A DNA stretch of 64,000 nucleotides from NCBI GenBank assembly GCA_015060005.1, contig SUZI01000002.1, positions 218,177-282,176 of the forward strand. The letters are read 5' to 3'. Source of the DNA: Rikenellaceae bacterium (GTDB lineage: Bacteria > Bacteroidota > Bacteroidia > Bacteroidales > Rikenellaceae). Under the pieces are notes generated by a model. The model worked only from the letters and a program-made list of their open reading frames with translations. It did no database searches and was not told where the DNA came from. This document shows positions 23,098-63,880 of the stretch, in pieces. Position 1 is the first letter of the stretch. Each line of letters starts with the position of its first letter. The translations under genes were made by a program, and so were the position numbers.

Positions 23098-23125
23098 CCA
23101 CTCCCTACGCGTGTTGGTTTAATGT

Positions 23126-23154
23126 AAGAGGCTCCCGCAGCCTCTTATTTTTTT
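23126..23154 (+). terminator. Rho-independent terminator of the porin gene
   Basis: AAGAGGCT (23126-23133) pairs with AGCCTCTT (23139-23146), followed by a T7 run (23148-23154). Confidence 0.75.
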
Positions 23155-23162
23155 GCCCCTCA

Positions 23163-23213
23163 CTCTTCCTCTTCCCCTCTCCTCTCTCCTCTCTCTCCTC
23201 TCTCTTCTTCCTC
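23163..23213. repeat. 51-nt pure polypyrimidine (C/T) tract
   Basis: Direct reading: only C and T between 23163 and 23213 (CTCTTCCTCTTCCCCTCTCCTCTCTCC...). Confidence 0.9.
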
Positions 23214-23214
23214 G

Positions 23215-23234
23215 CTCACTCACTCACTCACTCA
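23215..23234. repeat. (CTCA)5 tetranucleotide microsatellite
   Basis: Five perfect CTCA units directly after the polypyrimidine tract. Confidence 0.9.
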
Positions 23235-23252
23235 CGACGCCCTCGGTAACAC

Positions 23253-23272
23253 GGGTAACCAATTGGTTACCC
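23253..23272. repeat. Perfect 20-bp palindrome GGGTAACCAATTGGTTACCC
   Basis: The sequence is identical to its reverse complement. Confidence 0.9.
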
Positions 23273-23345
23273 GGAACATTTCGCCTTCTCCCTACGGTGT
23301 CGTGGGTAGCTTTTTACTCCCCACACCGCCAAAACTAAAAAGTAT

Positions 23346-23400
23346 TTTTCTATTGCGACTTTAATAACCCTTAGTATCCCTTAATAACCTTTAGCATCCC
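23346..23400 (+). repeat. Left copy of the intergenic repeat (21-nt core TTTTCTATTGCGACTTTAATA plus ~10-bp tandem units)
   Basis: The 21-nt core at 23346-23366 is identical to 35428-35448. It is followed by TAATAACCCT / TAGTATCCCT / TAATAACCTT / TAGCATCCC. Confidence 0.85.
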
Positions 23401-23752
23401 AAAAGTTTCGCGGGTAGTCTTTTTACTACCCACGACGACTAAAACTAAAATGTGAAAACTGAAAACCGAAATGTTAATTTTGAATTGTAAAACTCGTCAT
23501 TCCCCGCCTTGCCCTGCAAGGCGAAGGGAATCTACCTCATATAAATTCAAAGGTAAACTTAAACCTACAAACTGAAATCTCCTATCTCAGCCACAGACTT
23601 TACTCTCCCTTAATCTCCCTTAATATCCTTTAGCATCATAAAACTCTGCTTTCAATTCCACAACCCGAGTTGCGTTTTCAAATCTTAAAATTGCCATAAC
23701 TCCAATGTTTTAAGGTTAAAAAATGTAATTTGTTTTATAGGTATCAATAATA

Positions 23753-23795
23753 AAGGTCGGAGTGTCTACACTAATGCATAGACCACTCCGACCTT
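23753..23795 (-). terminator. Long hairpin terminating the island gene array
   Basis: AAGGTCGGAGTGTCTA pairs with TAGACCACTCCGACCTT (16 bp, one bulge). On the minus strand it lies 74 nt after the channel stop and is followed by the T-rich TTATTATTG. Confidence 0.65.
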
Positions 23796-23868
23796 CTTGG
23801 ATATTTCAAGAAAGTTAAATTACCCCCCCCCTATAGCGGATTTTAATGGGCTGTTATTTATCTGTCCG

Positions 23869-24720
23869 TCAAACATTTATATCCCCTTTTTGTCTATTTT
23901 TCTCCTTGTTTTTATGCTTGTCGTCGAGCACCTCCTGGTAGTTGTTGATGATTGCTCCGGTTACGACATTGAGCAGCAGGAACGCCGAGAGCACCACCCA
24001 CGTGATGTGGAACAGGTTGATTATCATCGGTGATGTGTTGATGAGCCCCAGCTCATACGCCTGCATACTATTGTATCTCACGTCAGCCCACGCATCACCC
24101 GTCAGCTCGCGGAAGAGTGTAAACATCGCCTCGCCCACGTTGGCAAATGGGTCGGGAGCACATTGTGGGACGTTAGATGCTGTCTGGCAATACTCCTCAT
24201 AGTTGGCTTTTAGCTGCTCCGATGCACTCTCCACGTCGGGCATACGGAACAGGCCGACACCGATGATTGCAAACAGATAGATGAATATCACGAAGAGTAT
24301 GATGTTGTAGAACATCGACACCAGCGAACGCAGCAACACCGATATTATGAGCTTTATCTCCTGCGACACACGCAGCAGTCTGAGCACGCGGAAGACTCTG
24401 ATAACACGCAGAGCCATCAGAGCTGATGGGTTTGTTATGATGGATGTCGGTATGTATCCTATCACCACTAACGTGAGGTCAAACAAGTTCCATCCGCTTG
24501 CGAAAAACTCCTTTGTGCTATCTGCGGCAATGAATCGTGCCAATATCTCGAAAGTGAATATTCCGAGAATGATTTTCTGCACCACAGTTATCGCCTCGCA
24601 GCTTACGGCGGTCTCCACGCCAATAAGTATCGAGTTCACTATGATTATTGCCGCTATAGTGAGCTCAAATATCTTGTTCTCCGTCAGCGACCGACAAAAC
24701 GATTTAAGTTGTTTATACAT
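23869..24720 (-). CDS. Voltage-gated-type ion channel subunit (6-TM, BacNav/NaChBac-like fold) with an atypical pore filter
   Basis: S4 with Arg every third residue (LRVIRVFRVLRLLRV). Pore loop MFTLFRELTGDAWADV followed by S6. 283 aa. Confidence 0.75.
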   Translation of the reverse strand: MYKQLKSFCRSLTENKIFELTIAAIIIVNSILIGVETAVSCEAITVVQKIILGIFTFEILARFIAADSTKEFFASGWNLFDLTLVVIGYIPTSIITNPSALMALRVIRVFRVLRLLRVSQEIKLIISVLLRSLVSMFYNIILFVIFIYLFAIIGVGLFRMPDVESASEQLKANYEEYCQTASNVPQCAPDPFANVGEAMFTLFRELTGDAWADVRYNSMQAYELGLINTSPMIINLFHITWVVLSAFLLLNVVTGAIINNYQEVLDDKHKNKEKNRQKGDINV

Positions 24721-24905
24721 AGTTGTTTTTTTCGTGTCTTACAGCTATCTTTTATCCGTTAATCTACATAATCCTGCATACCGAAATCCTTACCTTCGAG
24801 GCGAGAAACCATCTCCCGAGGAGCAATCAATTCTTCTCTCTGCTTGGTGTTGCTGCCCCAATATCTTGTATCCTCTTTATATGGTAAATATTGTCGGTAT
24901 CCGTC

Positions 24906-26666
24906 TTAGCAACTTTCAATGCTGTATTTCATTCTGTCACGCAGTACGTCGAGCAGTTTGGAGAACTCGGCAGGTCTGCCCTGCACGGTCGTAGGCCACT
25001 GCGATGTCAGCACAACCTCCTTGTCGGCGAGTTTAATTGTCGGCACATCGGGGCGACGACCAAAGAAGTCCACCTTTCCTTTCTCGTTCAGGATGTTGAG
25101 ATACTCGTTGTAGTCGAGGAATACGGTATCCATATTTTTCTTGAAAGCAAAAGCCTCCTTGAGCTGTTCGTGAGTGGTGCCGGGGTGCTCCGAGAGGTAG
25201 TACATCACCACATCGTTTACAAACTCCTTCTTTGTCGAGTATACCTTGCCGTTGAACTTGTACGACGATGTGTCGCGGTTGAACTTTGTAGGCTTCTTCA
25301 TCGGGCCATCAAAAGCCTTGAGGTTTGTTACAGCCGACATCTCGAGTGTTGCCTCAATTATCTCTCCCAGCTGGTCGTCATTGCCGACTATCTCTGCAAT
25401 CTTGTTGAGCAGTGTCGATACGCTGAAGGCTCTGTTGCTGAGGAATGTCTCCTTCTGGCACATACGATATACTATCTTCTCCCACTCTTCGTCGAACTCC
25501 TCCGTTTTGTCCAATACCTCTGACTCCTGTGCTGTCAGTGGACGGAGCTTGAGTTTCGATGCTATGGTCTCGTTCCAAGACTTGAAGTCGGGAGCCTCCG
25601 TCAACTGATTGTAGATATACGGATAAGCAATCTGTATGCAGACCAACGAGTAGTTGATGAGTTTGTCGAGTACTGTTATATTGTTCTGTGCTCCCGTCTG
25701 CTCCTCATAAATTATCGATATCAGGGCGAGGGTGTTTGTCAGTCGCTTCAGAGAGCGAGGGTTTGTACCTACCGAGAGACGTGTTATCTCCGACAGTTTC
25801 TCCGCCAGCGAAGGGTCTTTCAGCTCCTGGTCTGTGAAGAACTCTATCTTTCCCAGAGCATCCACCAGGAACGAGTCCACCGAGTACGAAGCCACCGGCA
25901 TAGAGAATGGCAGCTGAATTATCTTGTCGAAGAACGAACGGAACTCACGCTCGTTGGCATCTGTCAGCTCGCCGAACTTTGGTTTCAATCCTTTGATTAC
26001 TACGTCGTAGTCTATGGCGAGAATGAATACGCACTTCTCGAGGTCGAATATGTTCTTCAGCAGCTCCAGAATCTCCACCGCCACGGGTGGGTCTATACGG
26101 TCAAGATCGTCGATGTAGAACGTGAAGCCCTGCTTCGATGTATCCTTTGACAACGCCTCATCTATCAGCTTTGCAATCTCCTCCTTGAGCTGCGATATGT
26201 CCGATGCGGCACTCTCCTTGCCCTCGAAGAGATCATCTACCACTCCGCCATCGATGCCTACAGTGCCTGCGACCATCTTTGTACCTACCGATGCCATCTT
26301 CTTGAACAATCCGCCAATCTTACGTTTGCTCTCTGCCCACTTCTGGTCGCTTGGGTGGAGAGCTCCTATTTGGTTGATTATACCTTCAAGGATTGACATA
26401 ATGGCTTGCGATGGGGTCTTCATCAGCGAGTACTGCCAGGTGTTAATCCATACAGGGAAATATGGTGCATCGTTCACATCGCACAGGTTGTAACGCAACA
26501 GGTTCATCAGCGATGTCTTACCGCTTCCCCACTCACCCTGCAGGGCGATTGTTATCGGGGTGTCGGTCATACGAATATATTTAATCAAAGCATTCTGATA
26601 TGCCTGAATACCAAAAAGGTCCTCCTGCGTATGTTTACGCGGTACGTCTATTATGCTTGACTTCAT
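24906..26666 (-). CDS. KAP-family P-loop NTPase with an extra C-terminal domain
   Basis: Walker A LQGEWGSGKTSL. KAP-type Walker B FYIDDLDRIDP. NPRSLKRLTN motif. No TM insertion seen. The C-terminal ~115 aa resemble the N-terminus of the OmpA-like protein at 32224-33138. Confidence 0.75.
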   Translation of the reverse strand: MKSSIIDVPRKHTQEDLFGIQAYQNALIKYIRMTDTPITIALQGEWGSGKTSLMNLLRYNLCDVNDAPYFPVWINTWQYSLMKTPSQAIMSILEGIINQIGALHPSDQKWAESKRKIGGLFKKMASVGTKMVAGTVGIDGGVVDDLFEGKESAASDISQLKEEIAKLIDEALSKDTSKQGFTFYIDDLDRIDPPVAVEILELLKNIFDLEKCVFILAIDYDVVIKGLKPKFGELTDANEREFRSFFDKIIQLPFSMPVASYSVDSFLVDALGKIEFFTDQELKDPSLAEKLSEITRLSVGTNPRSLKRLTNTLALISIIYEEQTGAQNNITVLDKLINYSLVCIQIAYPYIYNQLTEAPDFKSWNETIASKLKLRPLTAQESEVLDKTEEFDEEWEKIVYRMCQKETFLSNRAFSVSTLLNKIAEIVGNDDQLGEIIEATLEMSAVTNLKAFDGPMKKPTKFNRDTSSYKFNGKVYSTKKEFVNDVVMYYLSEHPGTTHEQLKEAFAFKKNMDTVFLDYNEYLNILNEKGKVDFFGRRPDVPTIKLADKEVVLTSQWPTTVQGRPAEFSKLLDVLRDRMKYSIESC

Positions 26667-26790
26667 CTTTTCAAATTTTAACTTTCTTCTTCTGGCTAAG
26701 TTTGTCGTTCGTGAAAAACTTTTTATCAGCCGCTTGCGATGCGTTTTCTGTGTTATATCTCGGCTCCCTAATCTCGGTTGGGAGAGGTTG

Positions 26791-27564
26791 TTAGTTTGCT
26801 GCTGAGCAGCGGTTTGTTGCCTCTACGCGACGCGAATCATCATACGTTACGGTTGCTATGTTGTAGTCGTCTCCTCGTACTTCATCTTGTTCAAACGATG
26901 TCTTCACCTCCGTCTTGAAGAGCTTTGCCACCTTGGTTGCAAGGGCTATGTCATCGTTAGCCAATGCCATATTGAGTATCTGCTCGCATCGGTCATTGTA
27001 GAATCGCACCCACGTTTGATATACTACGTGGTCAATAGCCAACGAAGCACCCACGCCGGCATCATTGTCGTAGAACATTCCCGAGCCGTGTTTTCCCTCC
27101 GATAGGGGAGCTCCCTCTGTGGGTATGGCTACCAGCAACGATATGAGCTTGCTTGTCTTGTCTGCTGCCTCTCCGTAGTATATCGACGTAGCCTCCTGAC
27201 CGAAGATATATGCCATCGCCGTATGATATTGCTGCTGTTTTTGGCGAGCTTCTCTGTCGTTCCACGCTCCACCTCGCCACTTTCCGAACTCCTGGGTATA
27301 GTCGTTATAGAATGAGTTCAATACCTTTTTAGCCCCTACGAAGTCGCCTTCGGCACAGAGTGTGTAGTATTCCTGCTCTTGTTCCGTTGCTATTCCTGAG
27401 AAGCCACCACCGTCCATCGGATCGTTGTCGACATCTAATACTATCTGACTCAGCCCATACACCACGCCAACTATCACCAGAATAATTAGCCACTTACCTT
27501 TTATCAGCTTTGAAAATGTATGTGATCCTTTGCTTGAGGAATGGTTTTTTTCGTTAGTTTTCAT
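26791..27564 (-). CDS. Membrane-anchored protein of unknown function (one N-terminal TM)
   Basis: ATG start, basic N-terminus, then WLIILVIVGVVYGLSQIVL. 257 aa, no recognised motif. Confidence 0.5.
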   Translation of the reverse strand: MKTNEKNHSSSKGSHTFSKLIKGKWLIILVIVGVVYGLSQIVLDVDNDPMDGGGFSGIATEQEQEYYTLCAEGDFVGAKKVLNSFYNDYTQEFGKWRGGAWNDREARQKQQQYHTAMAYIFGQEATSIYYGEAADKTSKLISLLVAIPTEGAPLSEGKHGSGMFYDNDAGVGASLAIDHVVYQTWVRFYNDRCEQILNMALANDDIALATKVAKLFKTEVKTSFEQDEVRGDDYNIATVTYDDSRRVEATNRCSAAN

Positions 27565-27617
27565 ATGACCTCTTTTATTTGTTACATCCTTTCAATTTTC
27601 AATGATATGCCTTGCCA

Positions 27618-27639
27618 CATAGACTGCGAACAGTCTATG
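27618..27639 (-). other. Perfect 9-bp stem-loop with a UUCG tetraloop on the transcribed (minus) strand
   Basis: Plus strand reads CATAGACTG CGAA CAGTCTATG. Minus-strand RNA would be CAUAGACUG-UUCG-CAGUCUAUG. No U-run follows. Confidence 0.6.
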
Positions 27640-27662
27640 CCCCTTCGTTCTCATTTGGTGGT

Positions 27663-27905
27663 TTATCTGCACCTTCTCAGGGCATCTTTTGTTCTCTCAA
27701 TCTCTGCTTTCCAGCCCTCTATGCGGCGGTCGTGGTATGCAGCCTTGTCAATCTTGTTTTTGCGATACGAAGCCTTTGAGTATGACGACGATGCATTCTT
27801 TATCAGTCGTGCGTAGCTGTCGTTGTCGCGTTTCTTTGCCTCACGCTCATCCGATATGTAGCGTCGTAGGTCTATCAGCTTCTTCTTGTAATACTCTTTA
27901 CTCAT
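27663..27905 (-). CDS. Small basic coiled-coil-like protein, unknown function
   Basis: 80 aa, ATG start, K/R/E-rich (MSKEYYKKKLIDLRRYISDEREAKKRD...). Confidence 0.45.
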   Translation of the reverse strand: MSKEYYKKKLIDLRRYISDEREAKKRDNDSYARLIKNASSSYSKASYRKNKIDKAAYHDRRIEGWKAEIERTKDALRRCR

Positions 27906-27941
27906 AGTGCTTATTTTTTAAGGTTATTATTTCTTTTTTTG

Positions 27942-28253
27942 TTACATCCTTTCGATAATCAACTGCACCATATACACAGCGAATACCCACGCAGCAAAGC
28001 TCCACGCATATCCCAACACTGCTGTCACGCTGAAGCTGAATATCTGGTTCTTAGATTTTGCCCAGAACCAACGTGGGGGTATGTCGTTGCCGTATGCTAC
28101 CATACCGAATATCAGTCCTACCACTCCCACGGCTCCGCCATAGATTAACATCTCTGGCTCGTCGTAGACTATACATCCGATAAGTCCAAATGCCCCAATA
28201 GTGTTTACTATCGGAGCCAACAGGTTGATTATATATGCAATAACAAGAATCAT
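27942..28253 (-). CDS. Small integral membrane protein (about 3 TM)
   Basis: 103 aa, three hydrophobic stretches, ATG start. Confidence 0.5.
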   Translation of the reverse strand: MILVIAYIINLLAPIVNTIGAFGLIGCIVYDEPEMLIYGGAVGVVGLIFGMVAYGNDIPPRWFWAKSKNQIFSFSVTAVLGYAWSFAAWVFAVYMVQLIIERM

Positions 28254-28412
28254 AATCCAAAAATTAAACTACTTACCGATTCCAAATATTATTGTTCCAA
28301 TATCAAAAATTAACATAGATGAACTATTTAATTATAAACTCCTCTTAACGGGTCCATACCCGCATATATATCACTCTAAAGGAGCTGTGCCAACTCCTCC
28401 TTTGCGTTGTTT

Positions 28413-29000
28413 TTACTTCCAAACACCCTTCTTACAACCACTCTTCTCGCACTCGGCGTTGAACGACGCAAGAGTCTTATCATCGCTGGTTGATGATGTG
28501 TAGTAACGATGATTCTCGCCATTAGTGTAGCACACCTGGCAGTAGAGTCCGAATACTGTATCAAACTCCTTCTCAAGCGACTTAATCTTCTTGTTGCCCG
28601 ATATTGAGATGTCGCCACCAGAGTCGGCACGACGTACCGATGCGAGTGTCCTGTCATCTGGAATTCGACCACCCAATGAGTCACCTTTCTTTACCATCTC
28701 TCGGCTATAACTATAGCATACATAGAGGTTCAGATAGGGGAACTTTTTGTTGAACTCCTTACGCAAAGTACCCACCTTCTTGTTACCCGTAACCGATATC
28801 TCTGTTGCACTCTTTGAGGTGGTAGTAGTCTTCTTCGCTGCAGGTTTTGCTGCGGCAGTCTTCTTTGTAGCTGTGGCAGTAGTCTTCTTCGCTGCTGTAG
28901 TGGTCTTTTTCGCAGCTGCACTCTTTGTAGCACTCTTCTTAGCCGCTGTAGTGGTCTTCTTAGCTGTGGTTGTTTTCTTGGTTGTAGTAGTCTTTGCCAT
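28413..29000 (-). CDS. Lys/Thr/Ala-rich (histone-H1-like low-complexity) N-terminus fused to two copies of the island-specific ~50-aa module
   Basis: N-terminus MAKTTTTKKTTTAKKTTTAAKK... Modules GNKKVGTLRKEFNKKFPYLNLYVCY...DDRTLASV and GNKKIKSLEKEFDTVFGLYCQVCY...DDKTLASF. Confidence 0.6.
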   Translation of the reverse strand: MAKTTTTKKTTTAKKTTTAAKKSATKSAAAKKTTTAAKKTTATATKKTAAAKPAAKKTTTTSKSATEISVTGNKKVGTLRKEFNKKFPYLNLYVCYSYSREMVKKGDSLGGRIPDDRTLASVRRADSGGDISISGNKKIKSLEKEFDTVFGLYCQVCYTNGENHRYYTSSTSDDKTLASFNAECEKSGCKKGVWK

Positions 29001-29030
29001 AGTAGTAGTTTTTTAGGTTTCTTTGTGATA

Positions 29031-29052
29031 TGAGGTGCGGTCAGGCACCTCA
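29031..29052 (-). other. Intergenic hairpin with the conserved core GGTGCGGTCAGRCACCT
   Basis: TGAGGTGC pairs with GCACCTCA (8 bp, 6-nt loop). It lies between the stop at 29072 and the start at 29000. A 17-nt core recurs at 30550-30566 with one mismatch. Confidence 0.55.
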
Positions 29053-29071
29053 TACCTGTGTGTCGAGCCGA

Positions 29072-29386
29072 TTATTTACCAGCAGCAGCGAGAGTGATGT
29101 CGTTGTCAGCCAACTTCTTATCATCCTTGTCAGCTACCTGTACGCCGATACCGTACAACTCAGCAATCTTCTTCTCGAAGCTACCTACGCGGAGGTTGCT
29201 ACCTACAACGAGCTCGCCGCCCTTGTAACCCTCAGCACGCAATGAAGCGAGTGTAGCGTCCTCATCAGCCATAGCACCCTTGCAGGTTACGCTCTTGTAA
29301 ACACGCAAAGTTGCACCAAATGTCTTCTTAAAGTTGTCCTTCAAGCTCTTGACCTTCATACGGCCATCCAATTTGAAATCTGCCAT
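29072..29386 (-). CDS. Small protein made of two ~50-aa modules (A-B architecture), unknown function
   Basis: 104 aa. Module A MKVKSLKDNFKKTFGATLRVY...DEDATLASL. Module B LRVGSFEKKIAELYGIGVQVADKDDKKLADNDITLAAA. Confidence 0.6.
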   Translation of the reverse strand: MADFKLDGRMKVKSLKDNFKKTFGATLRVYKSVTCKGAMADEDATLASLRAEGYKGGELVVGSNLRVGSFEKKIAELYGIGVQVADKDDKKLADNDITLAAAGK

Positions 29387-29423
29387 AGTTTTTAAGTTTT
29401 TAGTTTGTTAATAAAATAGAGTG

Positions 29424-29630
29424 TTAGTTATTCTTCTTCTCGTTAAGAAAATCTACAAGTTTAGACCCAAACTGACGTGTGTTCCACGCAGGGTCATACT
29501 CGAAGCCCTCCTTCTCTGCAATCTCTCGCAGGGCTCCCTTCACATTGTCGTATATGCGATAAATCTCTATAGCACCGTTATCCAGTACCGATACTACATA
29601 CTCGCCCGAAATTACCGACTTCTTTGCCAT
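29424..29630 (-). CDS. Small soluble protein, unknown function
   Basis: 68 aa, ATG start, 37 nt upstream of the next gene in the array. Confidence 0.45.
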   Translation of the reverse strand: MAKKSVISGEYVVSVLDNGAIEIYRIYDNVKGALREIAEKEGFEYDPAWNTRQFGSKLVDFLNEKKNN

Positions 29631-29674
29631 TTTTTACTTTTTTATAGGTTAATAAAGTTCTCCAAACTCCCTGT

Positions 29675-29833
29675 TTAGAATATATCTTGTCCAAAAAAAG
29701 TTATTCCGAGATCAACACCGAAACACTTCTCGAAAATGAGCTGTGCAAGTGTCAGCACCGCTGCCAACGCCAGCAGAGCAAGAGCAACCGTCTTGCCCGT
29801 CACCACCGTCTTCTGTCTCTTCCTTCGTGCCAT
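29675..29833 (-). CDS. Unlisted 52-aa single-pass membrane micro-protein
   Basis: Hand-translated: MARRKRQKTVVTGKTVALALLALAAVLTLAQLIFEKCFGVDLGITFFGQDIF, ATG at 29831-29833, TAA at 29675-29677. It fills an otherwise empty 225-nt gap and starts 22 nt after the upstream stop. Confidence 0.45.
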   Translation of the reverse strand: MARRKRQKTVVTGKTVALALLALAAVLTLAQLIFEKCFGVDLGITFFGQDIF

Positions 29834-29855
29834 AATTACTGCTTTAAGTTTAGTG

Positions 29856-30524
29856 TCAAATAGTTACAATCTGATAGTAAAATTTCACATCATCAACAAT
29901 TTTGTCTCTCCACGCAATGGTGTACGAATTCTCCAGCTCAAATGACTTGTATGACTTCATTTGTGCACACGCACTCTGCTCGTTTTGCCAATGTTTAATT
30001 GGCGAGTGCGTACCCTCGGTTAAATTCAGCAGATAGTTATTCGACTCTTTCCTGCTTCCTTTGACATAGTATTCGTCGTTTGTTACGAACACCGCTAACC
30101 CTCCTTTGACTCGCTCAAAGCGGTTGCGTACCAGCTCCACGCGACGCACATCCTTCCAGAAGTCGTACATTCCCAGGTCCTGAGCTCCTTGATTTTTCAT
30201 CACTACTACTTTGTCTTTCAGCTCTTCATCAAAGCGTGTGATTGTACGCTCCACCTTTCGGGTTTTGTATTTCAGCTCCACAGGGCAATACTCGCCATCT
30301 TTTCTGACCACTATGTCGAGTCTGAGCTCGCTGTCCCATATATAGTTCTCAAGCTCACTCTTAGGCACATAATACTCCACGTCGACATCGTCGTAGTGGT
30401 TTGCCGACTTACGCAGCCACGTAGCTAAATGCATCTGCAGGTCTCGCTCATTGAATAACAACTCCTCGTTGCTCTCTATGAAAGCGAAAACATCTGCCCG
30501 AACAATCTCTACCAAACTTGCCAT
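29856..30524 (-). CDS. PD-(D/E)xK nuclease-fold candidate
   Basis: From the ATG at 30524 (MASLVEIV...). Motif SELRLDIVVRKDGEYCPVELKYK matches D ... E-x-K spacing of PD-(D/E)xK enzymes. The track start at 30614 adds 30 unlikely residues. Confidence 0.45.
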   Translation of the reverse strand: MASLVEIVRADVFAFIESNEELLFNERDLQMHLATWLRKSANHYDDVDVEYYVPKSELENYIWDSELRLDIVVRKDGEYCPVELKYKTRKVERTITRFDEELKDKVVVMKNQGAQDLGMYDFWKDVRRVELVRNRFERVKGGLAVFVTNDEYYVKGSRKESNNYLLNLTEGTHSPIKHWQNEQSACAQMKSYKSFELENSYTIAWRDKIVDDVKFYYQIVTI

Positions 30525-30635
30525 AAAAATTTCCTTTTTTGTACCTCTGGGTGCGGTCAGACACCTGCTCCCCGAATATCTGTTCTCCTCTTCGTTGTTG
30601 CTAAATACTGCCACAAGGGGGATTTAGGGGAAATC

Positions 30636-31142
30636 TTATGCACCCCTGAAATAATCACTTACCCTTGATGCTGCAAGAGTGATGAGAACCGCAATGGCGA
30701 CAGTTATAATACCCGTAAGAATAGTCCACCACTTCCACAAAATTATTTGTGCAATGATGGCGATGACTGCCAATGCCCAAATAACTATATTGACGATATT
30801 CCTGCGGGCGTTCTCCTTGAAATCTTCGCAGAAGTTTGCTGTGAAAAATGCAATAACAGCAGTTACAGGTCCTGTTGCCAAGGTCCACCATCCAAAGAAG
30901 ATAGCCTGCACAATAATGAGCACAAGAGCCAAAGACCAGACGCTCAAACGAATGATTCGTTTCGTCGAGTCTACAGGTTTTGCGTCATTGTCACAATCCT
31001 TAGGAGTCCTCTTCCTTCTCTTAATGTACTCTATTTCATCATCTTCCTCCTCGAGAGAGTCTTCCTGATCCATTTCGGAGTCATCATCAATCAAGGTTTC
31101 CGCTTTGGTCATTACCTTTTCTAATAAATTATCCATTTTCAT
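30636..31142 (-). CDS. Four-TM membrane protein with an acidic N-terminal tail and an internal 2-TM duplication
   Basis: N-terminus is D/E-rich (DDDSEMDQEDSLEEEDDEIEY). Repeats VWSLALVLIIVQAIFFGWWTLATGPVTAVIAFF and VIWALAVIAIIAQIILWKWWTILTGIITVAIAVL. Confidence 0.55.
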   Translation of the reverse strand: MKMDNLLEKVMTKAETLIDDDSEMDQEDSLEEEDDEIEYIKRRKRTPKDCDNDAKPVDSTKRIIRLSVWSLALVLIIVQAIFFGWWTLATGPVTAVIAFFTANFCEDFKENARRNIVNIVIWALAVIAIIAQIILWKWWTILTGIITVAIAVLITLAASRVSDYFRGA

Positions 31143-31180
31143 ATTCTGTAAATCTTAATAGAGTAAATATTCCGTGTTGT

Positions 31181-31543
31181 TTAATACTCGCCGCGTGCAG
31201 CCTGACCTATGGTAATGCCATTTGGAACGAGCTTGGTGCCTTTGGCATCCTTGATCTGAACTGTTACGCCGAAGTTCTGGTCAAAGAGCTTCTCTGCGTC
31301 GCCCACCTTCATACTCGCTTTGATTTTCAATCCATCGGCAGTCGACTTCACATCTTTGGTTGTCTTTTTGTTGAGTGCCGCCAATGTCAGGTCGCCATCC
31401 GCAATCTGTGCTCCCTTGTAGAATACAAGCGAGAGGTTGAACGCCTTCTTAAAGTCTGCCGACAAAGTCTTCAATTTCTTGTTTGGAGCCACTGTGAACT
31501 CGCCACTCTTGAAGTTGTCTAAGATATTATTCAAAATTCCCAT
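31181..31543 (-). CDS. Small protein made of two ~50-aa modules (A-B architecture), paralog of 29072-29386
   Basis: From the ATG at 31543 (MGILNNILDNF...). Module A KKLKTLSADFKKAFNLSLVFY...DGDLTLAAL. Module B MKVGDAEKLFDQNFGVTVQIKDAKGTKLVPNGITIGQA. Confidence 0.6.
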   Translation of the reverse strand: MGILNNILDNFKSGEFTVAPNKKLKTLSADFKKAFNLSLVFYKGAQIADGDLTLAALNKKTTKDVKSTADGLKIKASMKVGDAEKLFDQNFGVTVQIKDAKGTKLVPNGITIGQAARGEY

Positions 31544-31594
31544 ATTATTGTGTAAAATGTTTATTATGCTGTGTTTCACCGACTTATCACGCCA

Positions 31595-31620
31595 CACAGG
31601 GAGCTGTCATACTCCCTGTG
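31595..31620 (-). other. Perfect 9-bp intergenic hairpin
   Basis: CACAGGGAG (31595-31603) pairs with CTCCCTGTG (31612-31620). It lies between the TerB-like stop (31636) and the next start (31543). Confidence 0.55.
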
Positions 31621-31635
31621 TCGGTGTGCGTTTTT

Positions 31636-32046
31636 TTAGAAGGCGAGTTCCAGTTCTTCCTCCTCCTTTGCCAAATCTATGATGAGCAATACTGCGCGAG
31701 CATCGTCAATACCCAGAGCCGAAGCCACTGCGAGCAGGTTATCCACCTCCTCTGTGCCGAGTACGCCATCGACAATTGCAATCTGCAGAGCCGCCTCGAA
31801 AACTATCTCAGCCTCCTCCTCGTCAATTTCCGCAGAGTTGTTGAGTATATACTCGTTCACCTGCTCCTCGTTCATATTCTCCACTTCACCTAAGGCAGCC
31901 TCCACTGCTGCTGTCAGCTCAGCGTTATCCAGCTCCAAAGCCTCAGCTATCTCCTCGACAGCCACCTTCTCAGCCTCATCGTATACTCCGTCAGCCCAAA
32001 CGACTGTTGCCAGCACTGCGGCAAGATTCTTAATATCGGTATTCAT
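31636..32046 (-). CDS. TerB-like (tellurite-resistance TerB / DjlA N-terminal fold) protein
   Basis: 136 aa, very acidic. Two helical repeats with the ADG/VDG..E signature (VVWADGVYDEAEKVAVEEIAEAL and IAIVDGVLGTEEVDNLLAVASALG). Confidence 0.6.
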   Translation of the reverse strand: MNTDIKNLAAVLATVVWADGVYDEAEKVAVEEIAEALELDNAELTAAVEAALGEVENMNEEQVNEYILNNSAEIDEEEAEIVFEAALQIAIVDGVLGTEEVDNLLAVASALGIDDARAVLLIIDLAKEEEELELAF

Positions 32047-32047
32047 A

Positions 32048-32200
32048 CTATTTGAACAATCTTAAAATGCGGTTTTTCAAACTATTTTTCTCCTTGCGGG
32101 CTTTTGCCATACGGGCACATATTGCCTTACCCTCCTTGGTACGCTTGTCGACAGTACCACTCTTGGTCTTTTTGACCGAAGTTGTTTTCTTAACAGCCAT
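32048..32200 (-). CDS. Unlisted 50-aa lysine-rich micro-protein, translationally coupled to the TerB-like gene
   Basis: Hand-translated: MAVKKTTSVKKTKSGTVDKRTKEGKAICARMAKARKEKNSLKNRILRLFK. ATG at 32198-32200, TAG at 32048-32050, and one base before the TerB-like ATG (32044-32046). Confidence 0.5.
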   Translation of the reverse strand: MAVKKTTSVKKTKSGTVDKRTKEGKAICARMAKARKEKNSLKNRILRLFK

Positions 32201-32223
32201 AATATCAATGTTTTATAATAATT

Positions 32224-33138
32224 TTACTCCAAAATAATGAACTCTGTACGACGGTTAGCCTCTGGGTTGCTCTCGTCGATAGGCTCCGATGAGCCCTTGC
32301 CTTCAGACTCCAGACGCTCAGCAGCGATGCCGCGTGATACGAGGAAGTCAACCGCAGCCTTGGCACGCTCCTCCGAGAGACGCTGGTTGAACGCAGCATC
32401 GCCCTCCGATGATGTGTGTCCTACGAGCTTAAGTCTGAGCTCTGGGTGCTTCTCCATCAGCTGCTGCAGGTCGTGCAATACGAACTTGGCATCGTCTGAG
32501 AGGTCAGCCTTACCCTTCACGAATGTAGCGTTGTTGAAATCCTTCTCAATCTCCTCTACGCGGTCCACGTAGACGATTTTCTCCACCTCTACAATCTTCT
32601 CGACCTCTACAACCTTCTCTACCTCTACTACCTCCTTCTCGGCAGGCTTCAGAGCGAAGAAAGCAGCTACGCCACCTACGAGCAGGAGCAGCAGGAGCCA
32701 CAACCACCACAACGACTTCTTCTTACCCGGCATAGGTGGCACGTAGCCATTCAGATACTCCAGACGAAAACCGCCCTTCTTGCCACCCTTGTCTGCAGCC
32801 TCAAACGATGCAATCTCTATATCGTATAGTTTGGCGTGCGACACCATACGCTCAAAACTTGGTTTTGTCCACATCTTTACTACCGACACCCTCTTATTGT
32901 CGCCCATTGTGAGCAACTCATCTTCTGCCTTGAAGTATCCGTCCCAATCTGCAGTTGTACCCTTATCTTCGGCGTAAACGAAGTTCTCTTTCACTCCTTT
33001 GTCGGGGTTTAACTCATTTGGAAATGCCTTACGCAAATCCTCTAAAGTTGCTTGCGGGTACATCACCATATATGCGTGTGCAATACCCAATGCGGTACGG
33101 TTTTGTGCCTTACCATAGACTCTTACTTTACTTGCCAT
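32224..33138 (-). CDS. Membrane-anchored OmpA-family peptidoglycan-binding protein with a novel N-terminal cytoplasmic domain
   Basis: C-terminal OmpA_C motifs (LVGHTSSEGDAAFNQRLSEERAKAAVDFL, NRRTEFI). One TM (LWWLWLLLLLLVGGVAAFFAL). (V/I)VEVEK repeats. The N-terminal ~125 aa resemble the KAP NTPase C-terminus. ATG at 33138 preferred; the track start is 33171. Confidence 0.7.
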   Translation of the reverse strand: MASKVRVYGKAQNRTALGIAHAYMVMYPQATLEDLRKAFPNELNPDKGVKENFVYAEDKGTTADWDGYFKAEDELLTMGDNKRVSVVKMWTKPSFERMVSHAKLYDIEIASFEAADKGGKKGGFRLEYLNGYVPPMPGKKKSLWWLWLLLLLLVGGVAAFFALKPAEKEVVEVEKVVEVEKIVEVEKIVYVDRVEEIEKDFNNATFVKGKADLSDDAKFVLHDLQQLMEKHPELRLKLVGHTSSEGDAAFNQRLSEERAKAAVDFLVSRGIAAERLESEGKGSSEPIDESNPEANRRTEFIILE

Positions 33139-33559
33139 AACATTATTATTTTTTTTGGTTTGATCTTTCAAGTGGGGCTTACATTTTACTACGCTTGGTG
33201 CATAAAAACAGAAAGCGTAGACTAATTACTTAATCTCCGCTGATAGGTCCTAGGAAAACCGTGGTAAGAAGAAAAAAGCAACAGCCTACGCCAAGAATGC
33301 GTACACCGGGTGGTATACACAACCAGCGATAGGGTTTGTCCTCTCTTACCGTAAATGAATTTCCTAGGTTCATCAGCGAGAATGACAAACACTTTCGTGT
33401 AAATCAAAATATTTCCACAAATATATGAAAAAATTTGACAAAACCTACCAACACCTCTAAAAATCTGACATTTCAAGGAGTTTTCGAGGGGCGGGCTGTT
33501 GCTGTTACAAAGATATGAAATGTTGACAAAGGAGAATTTGTCTTTTGTTGTCTTATTGA

Positions 33560-34729
33560 CTACTCTTCGGGATATGGAGTGTATTGTAAATTGTTGTTGC
33601 GTAGCGAGTCGTAGTAAACTATCTGTTCCAAATCCGACTCGATGTAATACGAGGACATTGTATCCATTGCTGCCACCGCTTCTAAGTAGCGTTGCTGATA
33701 TATCTCCCCATATTTTGTTGCTACAATTGCTTGTTCCGCCTCATCAAGCGTCTCTGCTGTTATCGCTTTGCTGAGCGAGTCGCATCGCTCCCACATAATG
33801 AGTACTTCCTGAGTTGCAAACTCTATATAATGAGATGCTTTGATGTGTTCAATCGAGGTGTTGCAAATCTCGTTTATTCCACTCTGCATCCTTTGGATTA
33901 GCTCCTTGCGATGTCTCTCTTTTCGGTGTGTCCTCACCACCCACAATGTCTGTACAGCCACTGCCGAGATAATGATTATCGCTACCAGCAGATTGAGGGC
34001 AACCCTCCAGCCTCGGTTGTGGCGGTGCCACGCACGCTGTAACTCCTCGATGTTGGCATATCGTTTTGCAGGGATGGCATTGGTGCATCGTTTGGTAATA
34101 GACGACACTCCCAACATCTCCATCATTATAATACCTATGCTATATATATCACTGCGAGCATCTATCCTGTCGGCGTGTGCCTGCAACTCGGGTGAGGCGT
34201 AGCGGGGTGTACATCCCAAGCTACGCAGGGCATACTCTGCATCGCTGTCTGCCAATCCGAAGTCGATAAGTTTCAGTGTGTTATCCGCACGTGTTATGAG
34301 TATGTTGTCGGGCTTCAGGTCGTTGTGTATTATGCCTCGTTTGTGGAGATATCCGACAGCCGCTATCAGCTCTGCGAATATGCGTTGGCGTTCCTTTTTG
34401 GATGGATTTTCTGCTATGAACTCTGTGAGTGTTCGCCCCTCGATATACTCCATCACTATGCCCATTCCTATGGGCAGCTGTTCTATGGTGTAGATGTGAA
34501 CGATGTTGTGGTGGTCGCACTCTAACGACAATTCATACTCGCGACGTAGCATACGTTGCTGAGCTTCCGAGTTGTCTTTTGTTGTCTTTATCAAGAAACG
34601 TTTACCATTTTTATGGGCTATCCAAAGACGTGATAGTGCAGTGATTCTCAACTCGTTAAAGTCGTGAAACTCCTCTGTGATAATTCCATTTGAGCCTCCT
34701 TGTTCTCTTATTTCACTCTCTTCTACCAT
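33560..34729 (-). CDS. Hanks-type Ser/Thr protein kinase with one TM and a C-terminal helical domain
   Basis: Catalytic loop IIHNDLKPDNILI, DFGLAD, ASPE, and the beta-3 Lys in FLIKT. TM LLVAIIIISAVAVQTLWVV. The ATG at 34729 is preferred; the track start at 34750 is a TTG. Confidence 0.75.
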   Translation of the reverse strand: MVEESEIREQGGSNGIITEEFHDFNELRITALSRLWIAHKNGKRFLIKTTKDNSEAQQRMLRREYELSLECDHHNIVHIYTIEQLPIGMGIVMEYIEGRTLTEFIAENPSKKERQRIFAELIAAVGYLHKRGIIHNDLKPDNILITRADNTLKLIDFGLADSDAEYALRSLGCTPRYASPELQAHADRIDARSDIYSIGIIMMEMLGVSSITKRCTNAIPAKRYANIEELQRAWHRHNRGWRVALNLLVAIIIISAVAVQTLWVVRTHRKERHRKELIQRMQSGINEICNTSIEHIKASHYIEFATQEVLIMWERCDSLSKAITAETLDEAEQAIVATKYGEIYQQRYLEAVAAMDTMSSYYIESDLEQIVYYDSLRNNNLQYTPYPEE

Positions 34730-34747
34730 ATTGGAATTTTTGTTTGT

Positions 34748-34768
34748 CAAAGATAATAATTATTTTTG
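34748..34768. promoter_or_regulatory. Back-to-back TAnnTTTG (-7) boxes of a divergent promoter pair
   Basis: Minus strand TATCTTTG (plus CAAAGATA, 34748-34755) lies 18 nt before the kinase ATG. Plus strand TATTTTTG (34761-34768) lies 5 nt before the ATG at 34774. Confidence 0.4.
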
Positions 34769-34773
34769 CAAAT

Positions 34774-35364
34774 ATGAGCATCCGTCGTGATATACCACAA
34801 ATTCGTGTTTTGCGTGAACGCGTTGAGAGACGTTTTGGTAAGCGTTTTTCGGTGCACGCCGACTTTTTGGCATTGGTGTCGGTTATTGAGATGGAGTTGC
34901 GTCAACACATCTCCGAGAGCACTCTGGAGCGTGTGTGGGGCTACTCTACGCGAGGCTATGACACCGTTTCGCTCCGTACTCTCGATGTCCTGTCGACCTA
35001 TGCTGAGGGGTGTAGTTGGCACGACTTCTGTCATCGTTTGCAGATGGCGGCTGAGAGCGAGTCGGAGCTCTTCAGCGTTGAGCATATCTCTACTGCCGAT
35101 TTACAGGTAGGTGATCGTCTGCAGATAGGCTGGCTTCCCGACCGACGTTGTGTTATTCGCTATGTGGGTGATAATCGTTTTATGGCAGAGAGTTGCGAGA
35201 ACTCCAAGATGCAGCCAGGCGACAGCTTTTCGTGTCTGCAGTTCACGCTTGGCAAGGAGCTTGTTATGTGTGATTTCATTCCGTTTAACACCTCCTCTCC
35301 CACCTCACAGTCCTATATCGTCGGCAGCCGCAATGGCTTGACCTCCCTCTGCATCGTGCACTAA
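34774..35364 (+). CDS. Hypothetical protein, possibly HTH-containing, divergent from the kinase
   Basis: From the ATG at 34774 (MSIRRDIPQIR...). ISESTLERVWGY resembles an HTH recognition segment. The C-terminal half is beta-rich. No family recognised. Confidence 0.4.
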   Translation: MSIRRDIPQIRVLRERVERRFGKRFSVHADFLALVSVIEMELRQHISESTLERVWGYSTRGYDTVSLRTLDVLSTYAEGCSWHDFCHRLQMAAESESELFSVEHISTADLQVGDRLQIGWLPDRRCVIRYVGDNRFMAESCENSKMQPGDSFSCLQFTLGKELVMCDFIPFNTSSPTSQSYIVGSRNGLTSLCIVH

Positions 35365-35427
35365 TCTTCTGTGCAAATTTTCGGCAGGAAGACTTTAGCC
35401 TCGCCAAAACTGAAGGGTAAAAGGTAC

Positions 35428-35512
35428 TTTTCTATTGCGACTTTAATATCCTTTAATATCCCTTAGTATCCCTTAACAACCCTCAATTTAACAACCCTCA
35501 ATTTAACCTCCC
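35428..35512 (+). repeat. Right copy of the intergenic repeat (identical 21-nt core plus ~10-bp tandem units)
   Basis: TTTTCTATTGCGACTTTAATA at 35428-35448 matches 23346-23366 exactly. It is followed by TCCTTTAATA / TCCCTTAGTA / TCCCTTAACAACCC / TCAATTTAACAACCC / TCAATTTAACCTCCC. Confidence 0.85.
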
Positions 35513-63806: not shown

Positions 63807-63880
63807 TTCTATTTTTTGCGACTTTAGTATCCTTTAGTGCTCTTTAATACCCCTTTTAGCCCCTTTTGCCCCCTTTTATC
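63807..63880 (+). repeat. Third, diverged copy of the intergenic repeat family
   Basis: TTCTATTTTTTGCGACTTTAGTATCCTTTAGTGCTCTTTAATACCCCTTTTAGCCCCTTTTGCCCCCTTTTATC. Related to the cores at 23346 and 35428 and followed by a CT-rich stretch. Confidence 0.7.

Follow-up and report, generated by a model that had tools for sequence, protein, structure and literature searches.

The window analysed here is a stretch of 64,000 nucleotides (nt) from a Rikenellaceae bacterium (assembly GCA_015060005.1, contig SUZI01000002.1, positions 218,177-282,176, forward strand), and window positions are used throughout. The block of interest (23346-35448) holds 16 co-directional genes on the minus strand, among them genes for a receptor-type Ser/Thr kinase, an OmpA-like protein, a TerB-domain protein, a KAP-family NTPase, a voltage-gated-type channel and a series of small proteins, as well as one divergent gene, p196, on the plus strand (Table 1). 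A preliminary description of the same DNA had presented the block as an island bracketed by a 21-nt direct repeat. The order and sizes of the minus-strand genes given there agree with the coordinates of the open reading frames (ORFs), and so do the gaps of 1-185 nt between the genes past the spacer that follows the kinase gene. The list of 16 minus-strand genes was correct, but the 196-amino-acid (aa) gene on the plus strand had been overlooked. Likewise, the 390-nt spacer was in the right position, but it is not empty, as a conserved structured RNA lies inside it.

All products were compared with the family libraries Pfam, NCBIfam, PHROGs and PADLOC (PADLOC-DB 2.0). The profile searches confirmed the domains Ion_trans, KAP_NTPase, TerB, OmpA and Pkinase that had been called from the translations. 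No match in these libraries was obtained for p257, p80, p104, p68, p52, p120, p50 and p196, and the remaining products of unknown kind gave only sub-threshold matches at chance level. As previously stated, the block carries no mobility genes: integrase, transposase and phage families were unmatched in the same libraries, and neither a tRNA nor an RNA at the Rfam gathering score was found in the block. Transmembrane (TM) topologies are predictions from hydrophobic helices; at least seven TM products had been claimed, and clear helices are present in seven, namely the channel, p257, p103, p52, p168, the OmpA-like protein and the kinase. The paralogy of the module proteins proved true (p104 against p120, 1e-13; p195 against p104, 6e-7). 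The impression of AT-richness is reflected in a GC content of 0.42-0.49 in the block compared with about 0.49-0.57 in most adjacent 1-kb bins. The terminator hairpin reported behind the channel gene is indeed a long hairpin; a consensus scan for hairpins did not list it, being limited to loops of up to 8 nt, and its loop is longer.

Table 1. Genes, RNA features and repeat copies of the block and its surroundings. Positions are those of the window; loci are those of the cluster census, and identities are mean pairwise identities over loci.
Feature	Position	Strand	Evidence and remarks
Left repeat copy, 21-mer followed by ~10-nt CCTTTAATAT-like units	23336..23407	+	exact 21-mer at 23346-23366
Weak partial repeat copy	23575..23646	+	63% identical to the left copy
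Long hairpin 3' of the channel gene, where transcription probably ends	23756..23796	-	read from the sequence (GGTCGGAGTGTCTA...TAGACCACTCCGACC)
Channel, 283 aa, single-domain, voltage-gated-type cation channel	23869..24720	-	Ion_trans 2.6e-42; orthologs in 14 loci
KAP-family P-loop NTPase, 586 aa, accessory	24906..26666	-	KAP_NTPase 1.7e-36; 26/89 loci
p257, 257 aa, N-terminally anchored, no family match, rare	26791..27564	-	5 loci
p80, 80 aa, highly charged, helical, core family	27663..27905	-	71 loci; identity 73%
p103, small protein with 3 TM helices	27942..28253	-	32 loci
p195, Lys/Thr/Ala-rich basic tail followed by two module copies	28413..29000	-	slot variable among strains
p104, protein of tandem ~50-aa modules, signature core family	29072..29386	-	AlphaFold 2 model, Foldseek; 160 species-level genomes; identity 0.78
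p68, 68-aa domain protein	29424..29630	-	domain elsewhere duplicated or fused; identity 0.82
p52, 52 aa, single-TM protein	29675..29833	-	11 loci
p222, PD-(D/E)xK-like protein	29856..30524	-	invariant D70, E83, K85; 43 loci; identity 0.65
p168, acidic N-terminus followed by 2x2 TM helices, rare	30636..31142	-	5 loci
p120, second tandem-module protein, paralog of p104	31181..31543	-	67 loci; identity 79%; true start is the ATG at 31543
TerB-domain protein, 136 aa, acidic	31636..32046	-	Pfam TerB 3.2e-10; 43 loci; identity 0.56
p50, 50 aa, very basic, isoelectric point 11.2	32048..32200	-	43 loci; identity 87%
OmpA-like protein, 304 aa	32224..33138	-	OmpA 4e-17; 58 loci; identity 0.72
Conserved structured RNA, predicted leader	33195..33406	-	alignment, covariation; no Rfam match
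Bacteroidetes-type -7 promoter box TATATTTG (TAnnTTTG)	33418..33425	-	directly upstream of the RNA
Receptor-type Hanks Ser/Thr kinase, 389 aa	33560..34729	-	Pkinase 3.8e-38; 41 loci; identity 0.42
p196, 196 aa, no family match, divergent from the kinase gene	34774..35364	+	conserved alongside the kinase; 40 loci; identity 0.45
Right repeat copy	35418..35489	+	21-mer at 35428-35448
Third, more diverged repeat copy, 28 kb outside the block	63808..63860	+	14-nt core at 63816-63829

One genome per species was scanned with p104. Relatives were present in 160 genomes, and the 79 loci whose p104 relatives are 70-88% identical were kept. They originate from Rikenellaceae/Alistipes, Muribaculaceae, Alloprevotella, "Bacteroidaceae" and other Bacteroidales metagenome-assembled genomes, chiefly from the guts of ruminants, birds and humans. 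The cluster census, in which the 17 proteins of the window were searched against the six-frame ORFs of all loci, showed the same collinear cluster in these 79 other species-level Bacteroidales genomes, in the order p196 (opposite strand), kinase, OmpA-like, p50, TerB, p120, [p222], [p68], p104, p80, [p103], [p195-like], [KAP], [channel]. The earlier proposal of a real functional unit with a conserved neighbourhood is borne out by this result, as the genes for the kinase, the OmpA-like protein, TerB, the module proteins, p80, p222 and a channel recur together, with their order kept, in about 80 further species. With regard to co-occurrence, the OmpA-like, TerB and module genes recur together across Bacteroidales, and the KAP gene joins them in only a minority of the loci. 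Even the smallest ORF of the conserved part, p50, is a real gene judging by its spread and conservation (Table 1), and it is duplicated in family F25. We consider it highly probable that the block is a conserved chromosomal cluster with an RNA leader, and not an island.

The mean pairwise identities of the small unannotated proteins, for example p50 and p68, lie far above that of the kinase. They were either under much stronger constraint than the kinase or have moved recently between lineages, and the data fit both explanations. In 57 of 65 loci the GC content falls short of that of the flanks, the mean difference being 4.2 points, and the chromosomal contexts of the cluster vary: L009-L011 adjoin the rpsL-fusA ribosomal operon and L006-L008 a GH2 gene. 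The p104 module family gave no tblastn match in 50,697 phage and 72,556 plasmid records. It was present on one of 2.9 million viral contigs (IMG/VR); this contig, L094, bears the whole bacterial cluster and is probably misassigned as viral.

The distal part of the cluster differs among species. In most of the other species the cluster ends with a Peptidase_C15 pyroglutamyl peptidase gene directly followed by the gene of a 566-aa Ion_trans protein with a long cytoplasmic tail. This pair was found in 37 loci (e.g., L022 12439-13041, L053 11725-13425), and the window has neither gene. Channels of the 566-aa family (F3) or of the window type were counted in 51 of 86 loci, a number affected by the many loci that are truncated by contig ends. 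The frequent families with no member in the window are F3 (47 loci), the pyroglutamyl peptidase F7 (43), the 54-aa basic protein F5 (47), the 429-aa lipoprotein F10 (36), DUF4230 pairs, F4 (25), the Phenol_MetA_deg outer-membrane barrel F17 (18) and the PDDEXK_4 protein F18 (17). GIY-YIG, DUF1232, BspA-type leucine-rich repeat (LRR), Sel1 and WG-repeat proteins, likewise without a member in the window, occur in fewer loci. In L005 the slot of p195 is taken by a WG-repeat gene, an F5 54-aa basic gene and a gene for a 176-aa module protein.

An alignment of the spacers between the kinase and OmpA-like genes revealed an element of about 215 nt, in which invariant blocks alternate with variable ones. 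A nucleotide profile detects it in 43 of 86 loci, without exception on the strand of the operon. It lies 130-320 nt past the stop codon of the kinase gene, and it co-occurs with 35 of the 40 kinase genes. The element lies 45-90 nt ahead of the first operon gene in 32 of 44 cases, regardless of which gene that is: an OmpA-like gene in 19 loci, DUF4230 in nine, F24 in four, F16 in three, and others in the rest. In the window it ends about 65 nt before the ATG of the OmpA-like gene. The sequence TAnnTTTG is found 8-15 nt upstream of the element in 34 of 44 loci, compared with 1 of 44 control windows; a sigma-70 promoter scan is uninformative for Bacteroidetes. A search of Rfam 15 (4227 families) returned no match at the gathering score, and two matches at chance level were seen at E<=10 within 33100-33600. 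Locus L073 carries two copies of the element (2285-2484 and 9305-9507) in one cluster, the second of them ahead of a sub-operon led by p104.

The structure of the RNA was examined on an alignment of 37 sequences with 45 pairs. Overall, 95% of the cells pair, compared with 33-51% when the partner columns are slid, and 20 pairs change on both sides, compared with 10.6±1.6 in shuffled alignments, none of which reached 20 (0/500). The copy in the window has a folding energy of -81.9 kcal/mol (z=-6.7). There are five covarying helices, two of which cross the main stem. A 5' hairpin (ACAC-GNRA-GUGU) is about 96% paired. The stem P1 (GCUGAUG/UAUCAGC) is paired in 100% of the cells and four of its seven pairs change on both sides, with compensatory variants including GCCAAU/AUUGGC, GUUAGU/ACUAAC and GAUAGU/ACUAUC, while the stem P2 (CCUAGGAA/UUCCUAGG) is invariant. 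In a further hairpin of variable sequence all seven of seven pairs change on both sides. P1 is crossed by the helix GUUUGUC/GACAAAC with UCUC/GAGA (90-93% paired) and by the terminal stem GCGUAGGCU/AGUCUACGC (98% paired), which is followed by a U-tract at about 33204-33212.

Three other candidates in this region were set aside. The nested minimum-free-energy fold is unsupported by covariation (81.8% paired compared with 81.0% in shuffles), and a local GNRA hairpin near the 3' end of the RNA also has little covariation support. An ORF of 49-84 aa over the RNA (F22) was treated as spurious because it is kept in only 12 loci. The covarying secondary structure and the 5' position downstream of a promoter box are those of a leader RNA, and we read the element as a putative 5' leader of the operon with an attenuator-like end.

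In the window, the gene behind the RNA encodes the OmpA-like protein, which consists of a cytoplasmic N-domain (residues 1-131), a TM helix (145-163) after KKK, a VEVEK-repeat linker and, beyond this membrane anchor, a periplasmic OmpA_C domain (residues 216-307 of the 315-aa ORF). The N-domain is highly conserved and has an invariant VYGKAQNRT..G..HAY motif. Its AlphaFold 2 model is confident (predicted local distance difference test, pLDDT, 83.7; predicted TM-score, pTM, 0.82), and it has no Foldseek match (best E=0.6) and no PDB sequence match by profile search. Shorter relatives consist of the N-domain and the TM helix, without the OmpA domain. A blastp hint (0.003) that the N-domain is related to the module was rejected, as hhalign shows no relation.

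The module itself is best seen in p104, the AlphaFold 2 model of which (pLDDT 89.8) contains two tandem units of about 50 aa with a beta-alpha-beta-beta-alpha arrangement. Nearly all of its best Foldseek matches are ISG15, di-ubiquitin and Atg8, although they are weak (E=5e-3, prob 0.84, TM 0.33), and one module repeat of a p104 homolog matches Pfam Ubiquitin_TPR1 (7e-7, 29.3 bits, cut-off 27). A ubiquitin-like (beta-grasp) fold is predicted for the modules from the model. An exhaustive profile search yielded 1022 representatives of the module family, 548 of them at E<=1e-10. In most members the module forms the N-terminal ~100 residues of proteins of 200-640 aa, and its C-terminal partners are BspA-type and classical LRRs, DUF6273, DUF4116, the C-terminal domain of ribosomal protein L7/L12, and OmpA.

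The main evidence that the module, p68 and the OmpA-like protein act together comes from fusions that join them. The p68 domain stands at the N-terminus of the OmpA-like protein in several species, and the module sequence is found on the OmpA-like protein in L067 and in the P0260 cluster of 41 members. Moreover, the p68 domain is duplicated in F33 and C-terminal on LRR proteins in F21. In the 317-aa protein P0243 the module is fused to the L7/L12 C-terminal domain (1.8e-17), a fusion that might point to a link with translation factors. Profile searches of PDB sequences gave only weak coiled-coil matches for p80, none of them significant, and no significant match for p196.

The kinase has a cytoplasmic kinase domain, a TM helix at 247-265 and an outer domain of about 120 aa, and its gene is a separate transcription unit upstream of the RNA. 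The Pkinase match and the sequences HNDLKPDN and IDFG in the translation are those of a Hanks-type kinase, with predicted activity. The TerB match scores 40.8 bits against a Pfam cut-off of 24.4. The earlier call of p222 as PD-(D/E)xK-like is plausible, and the label seems reasonable for the motif, as D70, E83 and K85 are invariant in 31 sequences; yet its best PDB sequence match is a weak one to a Cas4 nuclease (E=0.23 over the motif region), and it has no Pfam match.

The KAP NTPase matches PifA (5e-33, residues 5-315 against positions 6-315 of the 720-position profile) and PDC-S20 (1e-31) in PADLOC. The PifA match covers the N-terminal half only, and the C-terminal half is unmatched. The C-terminal domains of the KAP proteins differ among loci, and the comparison of the C-terminal domain of about 120 aa with the N-domain of the OmpA-like protein by hhalign is only suggestive (E=0.0025, probability 12%).

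The channel has an Ion_trans fold, a positively charged, Arg-rich S4 segment (RVIRVFRVLRLLRV) and a pore loop with the motif LTGDAWAD, which are features of BacNaV-type channels; its gating and selectivity are predicted only. In comparisons with PDB sequences, its voltage-sensor half matches the bacterial channels NavRh (1.6e-25) and NaChBac, and its full length matches single repeats of eukaryotic CaV/NaV channels. The pore half aligns with the eukaryotic repeats and not with the solved bacterial NaV channels, and the LTGDAWAD pore hints at a possible permeability to Ca2+.

No profile library assigns the block to a named system, and the preliminary description had recognised none either. PADLOC-DB 2.0 gave no full system; 12 products were unmatched, and the matches obtained were at the level of domains (KAP to PifA, PDC-S20 and QatA; the kinase to mad6 and PD-T4-6; TerB to PDC-S48; OmpA to ZorB, 8e-5). 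Anantharaman, Iyer and Aravind are said to have described, in 2012, Ter neighbourhoods in which TerB is associated with membrane proteins and Ser/Thr kinases. The block resembles such systems in having a small TerB protein beside membrane proteins, with a Hanks-type kinase nearby. Unlike them, it has only the kinase of the TerY-phosphatase-kinase triad: TerD/TerZ/TerA, TerC, TerY (vWA) and PP2C were unmatched in the 17 products, and TerB here is one of about ten core genes, the other core families being unannotated.

The 586-aa protein shares its KAP P-loop domain with PifA of the F plasmid, PDC-S20 and QatA (1e-24 to 5e-33); however, only the first 315 of the 720 profile positions of PifA are matched, the gene is accessory, and its product has a C-terminal domain specific to the cluster. 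The OmpA-like protein is similar to MotB, ZorB and Pal in its single TM helix, its N-in/C-out orientation and an OmpA_C domain with the NxxLSxxRA...NRRxE signature, but the block has no MotA, ZorA, ExbB or TolQ partner, and the 131-aa cytoplasmic domain has no relative in sequence or fold. As to Zorya, the weak ZorB match falls on the OmpA_C part, and ZorA, ZorC and ZorD were not found in the block by PADLOC. The channel is like NaChBac, NavAb and NavRh in being a six-TM single domain with an Arg at every third position of S4 and a T-x-D/E-x-W pore motif. It differs from them in its LTGDAWAD pore, which replaces TLESWS/M, and in a pore half nearer to single eukaryotic CaV repeats; moreover, most species with the cluster carry the 566-aa Ion_trans protein and the pyroglutamyl peptidase instead.

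Leader RNAs upstream of ion-homeostasis or envelope genes include the yybP-ykoY Mn2+, M-box Mg2+ and ydaO c-di-AMP riboswitches. The RNA of the block resembles attenuating riboswitches in that it covaries, lies between a promoter box and the first gene, ends in a stem with a U-tract and precedes an operon with channel and membrane-protein genes. In contrast to them, it belongs to no Rfam family, is longer (~215 nt) than most aptamers and has two helices that cross the main stem. With ISG15 and di-ubiquitin proteins p104 shares the predicted arrangement of two tandem small beta-grasp-like units, but these units of ~50 aa are shorter than ubiquitin, score weakly and lack a C-terminal Gly-Gly; unlike bacterial ubiquitin-like conflict systems, the cluster has no E1, E2 or JAB enzyme. 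No description of the cluster or of the RNA was found in the papers searched. Judged against Pfam, NCBIfam, PHROGs, PADLOC, Rfam 15 and these papers, we rate the cluster as lying outside the known kinds of system, because it lacks their defining features (TerD, TerC, TerY, ZorA, a full-length PifA match, an integrase) and because at least eight protein families and the N-domain of the OmpA-like protein are unmatched in the libraries and the RNA is absent from Rfam 15.

The block comprises two units: the receptor Ser/Thr kinase with the divergent p196, and a promoter, the RNA and a long operon. Our overall reading, which we hold with about even confidence, is that they encode a leader-RNA-gated, kinase-flanked complex in the inner membrane, anchored to peptidoglycan, which would serve envelope or ion stress and carry variable accessory genes. 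The function had earlier been sought in envelope stress sensing or in anti-phage activity; we infer the former as the most reasonable, and for the latter PADLOC gives only generic domain matches. In the proposed mechanism, the receptor kinase would sense an extracytoplasmic cue, and the leader RNA would gate the operon in the manner of an attenuator or riboswitch, transcription either stopping at the U-tract or reading on into the genes. The OmpA-like protein would sit in the inner membrane with its C-terminal domain bound to peptidoglycan and its N-domain facing the cytoplasm, and the soluble proteins p104, p120, p195, p68, p80, p50 and TerB may assemble on or near this N-domain. The neighbouring kinase may phosphorylate p195 and p50 on their Thr/Lys-rich tails. 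The distal voltage-gated-type channel would supply or dissipate an ion flux, and the system as a whole would respond to stress of either kind, envelope or ion. The accessory cargo of the operon would consist of the KAP NTPase, the PD-(D/E)xK-like protein and the products of other variable genes, and some of it may be defence-related.

Several points weigh against this reading. The full gene set is not obligatory, because about half of the loci (e.g., L006-L008) lack the kinase, the RNA, the OmpA-like protein and TerB, and retain p120, p222, p104, p80 and a channel. The complex is deduced solely from synteny and from fusions. No library match exists for six core families, and the N-domain of the OmpA-like protein has no structural neighbour; no experiment or annotation ties any core family to a function. 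The variable cargo, with nuclease folds, GIY-YIG and the KAP NTPase, resembles that of a defence island. The high identity across species could partly reflect horizontal transfer, in view of the GC content below that of the flanks in 57 of the 65 loci. With respect to the RNA, the two helices crossing P1 might both form as pseudoknots within a single fold, so that the RNA need not switch, and the stem with its U-tract could also end an independent small RNA.

The island proposed in the preliminary description depended on the direct repeat. The 21-mer TTTTCTATTGCGACTTTAATA is exact at 23346-23366 and 35428-35448, with a chance expectation of none, and it is embedded, as had been noted, in longer similar sequence, a stretch of 72 nt that is 82% similar between the two sites. 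The layout of the repeat family is ...CGCCAAAACTNAAAGGTA..TTTTCTATTGCGACTTTAATA followed by ~10-nt CCTTTAATAT-like units, and each of the three copies in the window sits just 3' of a plus-strand gene. A scan of metagenome contigs for the 21-mer gave two matches, neither of which has to do with the block; in the unrelated contig L091 it lies inside a similar stretch of 74 nt (2309-2389, minus strand) upstream of an unrelated gene. The repeat was not found in the 85 loci of other species with the cluster and is confined to loci of the same species. Because of the third copy in the window, the copy in an unrelated contig and this same-species distribution, the repeat is a dispersed intergenic element of the lineage and not an attachment site. 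The same-species sample, which contained only near-identical strains, consisted of 23 contigs with the exact porin gene and 23 with the exact SusC gene; all carry the block, none shows an empty site, and the block is fixed in the sampled population. The contig end behind the porin gene in L003 was rejected as an empty site, as L003 is collinear with the window to its end and the end is an assembly break. In L005 (13593-15167 compared with window 23100-23870; flanks 97-99% identical) an extra Mfa-like/DUF5000 fimbrial gene lies between the repeat element and the porin gene.

A horizontally acquired island, inserted between the porin gene and a polysaccharide-utilisation locus by way of the 21-nt direct repeats, would explain the exact repeat at both borders, the GC content below that of the flanks and the differing genomic contexts of the cluster among species. 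However, no integrase or other recombinase, transposase or tRNA accompanies the block, the repeats are not specific to its borders (the core recurs at 63816, the 21-mer in an unrelated contig, and neither border of the 85 other loci has the repeat), the expected presence/absence polymorphism was not seen in any of the 23+23 flank contigs, and the extra Mfa-like gene of L005 lies outside the repeat, adjoining the porin gene. Insertion by this route is largely refuted, and we regard it as very improbable. It is doubtful, to a lesser degree, that the cluster belongs to the anti-phage or conflict systems that act by abortive infection; in that case the kinase or the RNA would sense infection, the channel would depolarise the membrane, p222 and the KAP NTPase would be effectors, and the modules and p68 would be adaptors coupling the effectors to the sensor. 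Consistent with such a system are the PADLOC matches (KAP to PifA, 5e-33, and PDC-S20, 1e-31; the kinase to defence kinases; TerB to PDC-S48), the GC content below that of the flanks, the same small domains on several proteins and an accessory content (PDDEXK_4, GIY-YIG, LRR, Sel1, WG-repeat) that is highly variable even between strains, as the window and L005 show. These matches are all generic and at domain level, with no system matched, and the core proteins are 72-87% identical over about 80 species and fixed in the sampled strains, a conservation far above that usual for defence genes. Moreover, no more than 26 of 89 loci have the KAP gene and 43 have p222, and the module family has no match in the phage and plasmid records and is on a single viral contig among 2.9 million.

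It is also possible that there is not one system, and that a conserved small-protein operon (OmpA-like, p50, TerB, modules, p80) serves as a hotspot in which KAP, the channel, p257, p168 and p222 are independent passengers. The 5' part of the cluster is conserved and the gene set and gene order of the 3' part vary among species, the loci with KAP, the window-type channel, p257 and p168 number 26, 14, 5 and 5, respectively, the largest gaps (124 and 185 nt) border the KAP gene, and the KAP C-terminal domains differ among loci. This explanation is nevertheless unlikely, given that in 51 of 86 loci the cluster ends with a channel from one or the other Ion_trans family, that the genes are co-directional and tightly spaced with a single strong hairpin after the last, and that the KAP C-terminal domain weakly resembles the N-domain of the OmpA-like protein. 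Finally, the RNA could come from a small RNA gene that stands by itself, complete with promoter and terminator, the operon being transcribed separately or by read-through. The promoter box directly upstream, the covarying terminal stem (98% paired) with its conserved U-tract and the lack of covariation support for the nested alternative helices of a simple switch all fit this possibility, whereas the position of the RNA on the same strand, in most loci 45-90 nt ahead of whatever gene opens the operon, argues for a leader; we judge a separate small RNA to be improbable.

If the leader-gated complex is taken a step further, the ~215-nt leader might be a new riboswitch class or another ligand- or signal-responsive, pseudoknotted RNA that gates an unrecognised envelope system, in which a peptidoglycan-tethered scaffold in the inner membrane would recruit the ubiquitin-like modules and control the voltage-gated-type cation channel. 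We put this forward only tentatively; if true, the cluster would serve membrane excitability or ion signalling in bacteria and might be linked to abortive-infection effectors. Few bacteria of animals are as abundant as the gut Bacteroidales, and here about ten protein families with near-housekeeping conservation in at least 80-160 species lack annotation in the libraries. The covariation of the orphan RNA provides an experimental handle, and its trigger would reveal the cue of the operon. Taken together, the kinase, the peptidoglycan anchor, TerB, the ubiquitin-like modules and the channel suggest an unexplored link between the state of the envelope and ion flux. Should the variable cargo prove to consist of defence genes, the cluster would also offer a hotspot of a new kind for their discovery in Bacteroidales.

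Some smaller features of the DNA were also recorded. The part of the p195 gene that encodes the Lys/Thr/Ala tail (28800-29020, minus strand) is made of imperfect repeats with a period of 21 nt, through which the length of the tail could vary between strains. A CT-rich low-complexity tract (23150-23240, plus strand), CTCTTCCTCTTCCCCTCTCCTCTCTCC... followed by a CACTCA repeat, lies between the porin terminator and the repeat element. The left copy of the repeat is flanked on the plus strand by two similar hairpin segments, GGGTAG-CTTTTTACT-CCCCAC..AAAACTAAAA at 23291-23330 and GGGTAGTCTTTTTACTACCC..AAAACTAAAA at 23409-23445.

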